Origin: Escherichia coli
GTDB lineage: Bacteria > Pseudomonadota > Gammaproteobacteria > Enterobacterales > Enterobacteriaceae
Assembly: GCF_003334815.1 (NCBI RefSeq)
Contig: NZ_QOWO01000111.1
Strand: one strand, 5' to 3'
Length of the DNA: 974 bases
Position 1 is the stretch's first letter. Each line of letters begins with the position of its first letter. Under the pieces are notes generated by a model. It worked only from the letters and a program-made list of their open reading frames with translations, was not told where the DNA came from and did no database searches. A program made the translations under genes and the position numbers. Shown here in pieces: positions 1 to 52 of this stretch.

Positions 1-52
1 TGTCAGCGCCAGTGATATAAGACGGTAATTCACCATTTGGATTGTCCGCTCC
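1..52. repeat. Left terminal repeat region (IRL) with an internally reiterated terminal motif
   Basis: Seen in sequence: 1-10 tgtcagcgcc and 43-52 tgtccgctcc match at 8 of 10 positions in direct orientation. IS21-family ends are known to carry multiple reiterated transposase-binding repeats. The exact extent of the inverted repeat cannot be set without the right end. Confidence 0.55.
13..21 (+). promoter_or_regulatory. Candidate extended -10 promoter element (TGaTATAAg)
   Basis: Seen in sequence: tgatataag at 13-21 matches the extended -10 consensus TGnTATAAT at 8 of 9 positions (all but the final base). It is oriented toward istA. With a 17-bp spacer a -35 would lie at about -7 to -2, upstream of the window. 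Not verified experimentally. Confidence 0.4.

Follow-up and report, generated by a model that had tools for sequence, protein, structure and literature searches.

Organization of the window

The window, that is, the whole 974-nucleotide stretch of Escherichia coli DNA analysed here, begins with about 100 non-coding bases. These are followed by an open reading frame of 291 codons that starts at an ATG at position 102 and is still open at the last base. The features assigned to it are the following.

1–11, plus strand: terminal 11 bp of the left inverted repeat (IRL, repeat L1), TGTCAGCGCCA, defined by the break in similarity and by its match to the right tip (10 of 11)
1–50, plus strand: extended imperfect inverted repeat, comprising L1 and the first bases of L2, defined by comparison with the right end (36 of 50)
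16–21, plus strand: TATAAG, a −10-like hexamer that pairs with the TTGACA of the right tip when two ends abut
43–53, plus strand: internal direct repeat L2, TGTCCGCTCCA, identical to bases 1–11 at 9 of 11 positions
102–974, plus strand: istA, codons 1–291 of 390 (HTH domains and DDE/rve core), from the translation, profile NF033546 and comparison with IstA
126–128, plus strand: in-frame ATG at codon 9 (MLSREDFYM), the expected start of a shorter IstA isoform (the ‘cointegrase’), from the translation
493, plus strand: private substitution C to T (IstA Ala131Val), from comparison with IS21 copies
945–974, plus strand: the last 30 bases of the contig, which are the first 30 of many contigs carrying the rest of IS21 (945–2131), from contig comparison

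Identity of the element

The window is almost certainly the left 974 bp of the insertion sequence IS21 (2131 bp, with an istA–istB operon), present as a stand-alone contig of a short-read assembly. Its DNA has counterparts in more than 3000 plasmid records and in about 3000 records from complete E. coli genomes, and the top matches reach 99.8% identity across all 974 bases. The IstA product reaches 280.4 bits against the NCBIfam profile NF033546 (transpos_IS21; cut-off 160) and covers profile positions 2–292 of 294. By this score it has the N-terminal HTH and the DDE (rve) core that characterize transposases of the IS21 family, and PF00665 (rve) is recorded for the same product.

Assignment to IS21 proper follows from the DNA identity, from the length of 2131 bp found in six complete copies, and from the protein. 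Of the 291 IstA residues in the window, 290 are the same as in the corresponding N-terminal part of the 390-residue IS21 IstA WP_021575228.1, and the RefSeq record for the product (RCR40624.1 / WP_114476224.1) is named ‘IS21-like element IS21 family transposase, partial [Escherichia coli]’. Named IS21 copies have the tips TGTCAGCGCCA ... TGGCGTTGACA, the left one of which opens the window, and three point differences are all that separates it from common copies of the element. IS21, also known as IS8, is the prototype of the IS21 family and was first described on the IncP plasmid R68/R68.45; the prototype is 2131 bp long. The ends, proteins and transposition chemistry of IS21 are already known from genetics and cryo-EM, and the window departs in nothing from known IS21. 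The significance of the find is therefore small, IS21 being a textbook insertion sequence.

An IstA isoform without the first 8 residues has been reported (PMC10122671). In the window, this shorter ‘cointegrase’ would begin at the predicted start ATG at 126–128.

The initial annotation had assigned the window to the IS21 family, which the profile score bears out, and had described it as IS100-like, with a right end about 2 kb downstream. IS100 (Yersinia pestis CO92 pPCP1) belongs to the same family and shares with IS21 the istA–istB order and the TG...CA tips; it likewise begins with TGT and ends in ...GTTGACA, so that TTGACA is found at the right tip of both elements. However, the 340-residue IstA of IS100 is 34% identical to that of the window, against 99.7% for IS21 IstA, and the IS100 left end (TGTAACGAACGG...) has its first three bases in common with the window and is unrelated thereafter. 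Moreover, the complete copies are 2131 bp and not 1954 bp long, and the RefSeq protein name specifies IS21. We thus rejected IS100 and IS100kyp as the identity of the element, and we give an IS100-like member of about 1.95 kb a negligible probability. With IS21 as the element, a further 1157 bp separate the end of the window from the right end.

Closer relatives are ISEc62 and unnamed IS21-like elements of Citrobacter and of Yersinia pCD plasmids, which are 85–92% identical to the window in DNA. They have the same architecture and the same boundary, and their first ~100 non-coding bases, including L1/L2, are nearly identical to those of the window, whereas istA differs at 8–15% of its nucleotides. 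The window is far closer to IS21 than to any of them. Target duplications in this group measure 4 or 5 bp: a 92%-identical relative from Citrobacter freundii (NZ_CP056841.1; L012) has the 5-bp duplication GGAGC, and an ISEc62 copy has one of 4 bp, as do six IS21 copies. The length of the duplication therefore varies among close relatives.

Base 1 is the left terminus of IS21

The left inverted repeat of IS21 has its outer tip at base 1 of the window (5'-TGTCAG). In seven database copies of IS21 (L001–L007), the 40 bases upstream show no relation to one another, and identity with the window sets in at exactly base 1. These copies reside in an IncN plasmid, two E. coli chromosomes, a Klebsiella michiganensis IncI plasmid, a Salmonella IncX1 plasmid and another two plasmids of E. 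coli, of which one was typed IncF. A metagenome contig (L008) supplies an eighth context; its upstream DNA is unrelated too, and it is identical to the window from exactly base 1. Four of the relatives (L009, L012, L013 and L014; 85–92% identical) can likewise be aligned from exactly this base.

The same boundary was observed with a 401-nt query laid over a real junction (L015:4700–5100), in which the IS starts at position 201. The query matched 3510 plasmid records, none of which covered 80% or more of it or read through the junction, and the best matches listed start at query positions 193–199. That the window starts at the IS tip through an accident of cutting, with IS-related sequence continuing upstream, has nothing but its prior possibility in its favor. 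As similarity ends at base 1 in every context examined, and as the window is a full contig, we regard such an accident as exceedingly improbable.

The metagenome contig mentioned above (SFGN01000211.1, positions 1–98) is the sole match to the IS21 left tip in 100,044 species-representative genomes. It is a 3.7-kb contig of a ‘Lachnospiraceae’ metagenome-assembled genome that ends 98 nt into IS21, and it was probably binned wrongly, being of enterobacterial or plasmid origin. With this single match, the collection tells little about host range.

Right end and target duplications of complete copies

Six of the seven copies fetched are complete. Each is 2131 bp long, encodes a 390-residue IstA and a 265-residue IstB, and is flanked by perfect 4-bp direct repeats (TCTT, CGCG, ACAT, TATT, TGTT and GTAT). 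The istB gene, which overlaps the istA stop codon, is present in the near-identical copies L001–L005 and L007, and it is also found on contigs that overlap the last 30 nt of the window.

The 3' end of the complete copies reads ...GTGGCGTTGACA-3' (also given as ...CGTGGCGTTGACA, with the tip ...TGGCGTTGACA). This right end, 2131 bp away in the six copies, is the inverted complement of the left end: the tips TGTCAGCGCCA and TGTCAACGCCA match at 10 of 11 positions, and an extended comparison of the left end with the reverse-complemented right end yields 36 matches in the first 50 columns, with two 1-nt gaps. Read from the complete copies, the element therefore has the TG...CA inverted repeats and the internal repeats of the IS21 family, and the duplication found in all six lies within the family range of 4–8 bp.

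The observation on which the initial annotation was built is confirmed by these data, and its interpretation is partly supported. The IS terminus that it proposed at base 1 coincides with the break in eight independent copies and four relatives. The right end ending in ...CA-3' with an inverted match to the left end, and the short flanking direct repeat, were found as it had foreseen. Continuing IS21 sequence upstream, or a right end without an inverted-repeat match, would by its own account have spoken against it, and neither was encountered.

The seventh copy (L006; NZ_CP098843.1, 1601–4019) has a shortened istA, and an IS110-family transposase gene takes the place of istB, an arrangement that looks like an IS-in-IS insertion. 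The upstream end of this copy overlaps a frameshifted relE/parE toxin gene.

Putative end signals and transposition mechanism

The ends of IS21 are organized as L1/L2 and R1/R2 repeats (PMC10122671, PMC11208146), and by analogy bases 1–50 of the window are the putative IstA-binding region. In shuffled versions of bases 12–110, a match to bases 1–11 as good as that of L2 (9 of 11, two mismatches) occurs in 0.7% of cases. L2 is kept in the relatives, with one substitution, at base 43, in L014, and it has a right-end counterpart, TGCCCGCT, at an equivalent distance. The non-coding bases 1–101 hardly vary among relatives whose istA differs by 8–15%, a pattern that would fit functional constraint on the leader.

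The last six bases of the IS21 right end are TTGACA. In a modelled IRR–NN/NNN–IRL junction, this hexamer is separated from TATAAG of the left end by a spacer of 17 nt (2-bp junction) or 18 nt (3-bp junction). The junction of R68.45 has 3 bp. By its sequence geometry, the abutted pair would correspond to a junction promoter of the Pjunc type, with an outward-facing −35 box at the right tip, an inward-facing −10 box in the left end and a spacing of 16–18 nt. A search of the window alone for a complete sigma-70-type promoter found none. The modelled geometry agrees with the published statement that the −10 box of IS21 is located in the left TIR and its −35 box in the right one, a strong promoter being created in tandems (PMC10122671). 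A lone IS21 is weakly expressed, while the promoter of the tandem is strong (PMC10122671; the same point is made in PMC9330008).

A mechanistic model is provided by IS5376 of Geobacillus stearothermophilus, a distant, structurally characterized member of the IS21 family in which an IstA tetramer binds L1/L2 and R1/R2 repeats, a CA dinucleotide is catalytic and strand transfer depends on IstB (PMC10122671, PMC11208146). It generates 5-bp duplications (PMC10122671), in contrast to the 4 bp of the IS21 copies studied here. According to the published work, the IstA tetramer binds the end repeats through two HTH domains and synapses the ends, the terminal CA is the catalytic dinucleotide, and strand transfer requires IstB (PMC10122671, PMC11208146).

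From such studies of the IS21 family we infer binding, cleavage and promoter function for the end in the window. IstA tetramers on L1/L2 and R1/R2 would synapse both ends, as in the published IS21 and IS5376 work, and IstA would cleave at the terminal CA-3' (TG-5' on the window strand). Together with IstB, an AAA+ helper ATPase, it would then join the ends to staggered cuts in the target, the stagger giving rise to the 4-bp duplication in IS21. The left-end TATAAG and the right-tip TTGACA would form a strong promoter only on abutted ends, so that istAB expression from such a reactive junction would be expected to rise.

The window is an entire contig

The window is identical to the whole 974-nt contig ERR271425_538 (Logan; also at NCBI), which was seen in five samples and came to light through an exact match of the 291-residue partial product. 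The record of that protein, RCR40624.1, likewise places it on a contig of 974 nt. As it is an entire contig, the record holds no upstream DNA and the insertion target cannot be read there. The contig probably stops at the IS tip owing to a repeat boundary met by the assembler. A node of an assembly graph that starts at the first base of a repeat arises when several flanks enter it, which suggests that the source genome carries IS21 sequence in more than one context, with different left flanks. A drop in coverage could instead have produced the start at the tip. Another sample has a contig that starts at base 31 (L017), a start for which a simple model of several flanks does not account. Partial IstA products of other lengths are on record (215–317 residues), which indicates that IS21 is often fragmented in draft assemblies.

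Among the possible upstream neighbors is the right end of a second IS21, as in a tandem (IS21)2 or a joined-end, promoter-forming junction. IS21 is known to form tandems (PMC10122671, PMC9330008), and the start at the tip would be compatible with several upstream contexts of any kind. However, no tandem or joined-end junction is among the eight examined, and junctions of this type are described as unstable (PMC9330008); hence we consider a tandem at this position very unlikely. The initial annotation envisaged a single junction just outside the window. With the window being an entire contig, there are probably several junctions, and when a contig opens with the first base of an IS, this is better read as a sign of repeat collapse than as a pointer to one hidden junction.

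Haplotype of the window

The window carries 493T (A131V), 528T (Ser rather than Thr at residue 143) and 563C (silent). The latter two are each found in some IS21 copies. Their combination was not found in any complete plasmid, and a 61-mer with both is absent from metagenome contigs. A 33-mer with 493T is absent from species-representative genomes, JGI metagenomes and viral contigs, and neither the window nor its haplotype has a 100% match in 72,556 plasmids and 5,426 complete E. coli genomes. The 493T haplotype recurs identically in at least three runs, in the Logan contigs of ERR271425, SRR3951465 and ERR14335422.

An IncX1 insertion site with the same haplotype

The only flank-joined context found for the exact 974-nt haplotype is a 9506-nt contig of the second of these runs (SRR3951465_262; L015/L019), which ends with the identical 974 bases and has unique DNA upstream. 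The upstream DNA encodes a resolvase, ParA/ParG, two Rep3-type initiators, and an antitoxin with a RelE/ParE toxin. The IncX1 plasmid NZ_CP024290.1 matches this flank at 100% identity and is free of IS21 there; it thus provides the empty site. The insertion point (marked by a slash) lies 23 bp past the stop codon of the relE/parE toxin gene, ...CCCGTAATTCG/CGGCTGCAGCC, and the empty site, around position 32202 of NZ_CP024290.1, reads ...GTAATTCG/CGGCTGCAG... The right junction is predicted to be ...GTTGACA-TTCG-CGGCTGCAG. The IncX1::IS21 junction of SRR3951465 is in no complete plasmid of PLSDB.

The insertion is intergenic, upstream of a gene for a J-domain protein, and it interrupts no gene, whether of virulence, resistance or any other function. 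It is an ordinary backbone insertion and is no evidence on the window's own sample. The initial annotation had raised a virulence or resistance locus as a possible target, a suggestion that finds no support in this sole flank-joined context.

To the right of the insertion point, the IncX1 empty site (CGGCTGCAGCCGCTC; L018 4276–4284) shares the 9-mer CTGCAGCCG with positions 964–972 of the window (TCTGCAGCCGTTA). A deletion between these short homologous stretches was considered as the cause of the contig end and rejected: it would diverge at base 973, not 975. The shared 9-mer is probably due to chance.

The break at base 974

Three contigs from different samples, all with the window haplotype, stop at base 974. 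Conversely, IS21 base 943–945 is the starting point of at least 23 contigs, which stem from unrelated samples and assemblers and contain the remainder of istA together with istB and the right end. These right-half contigs were found by a look-up of the 109-residue C-terminal remainder of IstA, and their start 30 nt before the end of the window had been predicted beforehand. Two right-half haplotypes (983G and 983A) both start at this 943–945 break. Across base 974/975, IS21 reads ...GTTA/CCGGATACGG.

Base 974 is a branch of the assembly graph and not a demonstrated end of the element, as the 30-nt overlap equals k−1 for a graph with k = 31. The 30-mer at the break is not shared with the related elements at hand and hence does not account for the break, and a second branch was not found. 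One of the right-half contigs comes from ERR271227, an accession close to that of the window, and continues beyond the right half of IS21 into 48 nt of right flank. This right-flank junction is spanned by no complete E. coli record, and the 48 nt appear to be repeated DNA.

The copy in the window might alternatively be a truncated remnant, consisting of IS21 bases 1–974 and devoid of a right end and of a paired duplication. The stop at exactly base 974 in three samples would agree with this, as would the IncX1 contig, which crosses the left junction into unique plasmid DNA and yet stops at 974. Truncated IS21 is moreover common, with bases 1–425 alone, for example, in many IncF plasmids. In contrast, the contigs from other samples that begin at 943–945 with the rest of IS21, including that of ERR271227, overlap the window by 30 nt, the length that a branch in a graph with k = 31 should give. 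Nor did any copy with its end at 974 turn up when 764 plasmid matches, chosen as a spread sample, were inspected across this point, and the partial IstA products of many other lengths (215–317 residues) point to general fragmentation. We therefore hold a remnant to be unlikely.

Less probable still is a structural variant of IS21 widespread in E. coli as the source of the recurrent stop at 974, be it a truncated derivative, a favored breakpoint or insertion site inside the element, or heterogeneity of the plasmid population. This proposal draws on the three contigs that end at 974, one of them in unique IncX1 DNA, and on the 23 or more that start 30 nt earlier. Instead of such a variant, co-resident IS21 variants could have caused an ordinary artefact of the graph. 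Our preferred reading remains the left part of an IS21 whose contig ends at a graph branch.

Among 60 rows of an evenly spaced sample of the plasmid matches, 18 have a remnant of IS21 bases 1–425 only (99.5% identical), and almost all of these 18 are from E. coli. In the IncF plasmid NZ_CP027130.1 (L010), this remnant occupies positions 1501–1925, between a RepB-family replication gene and a copy of IS1A.
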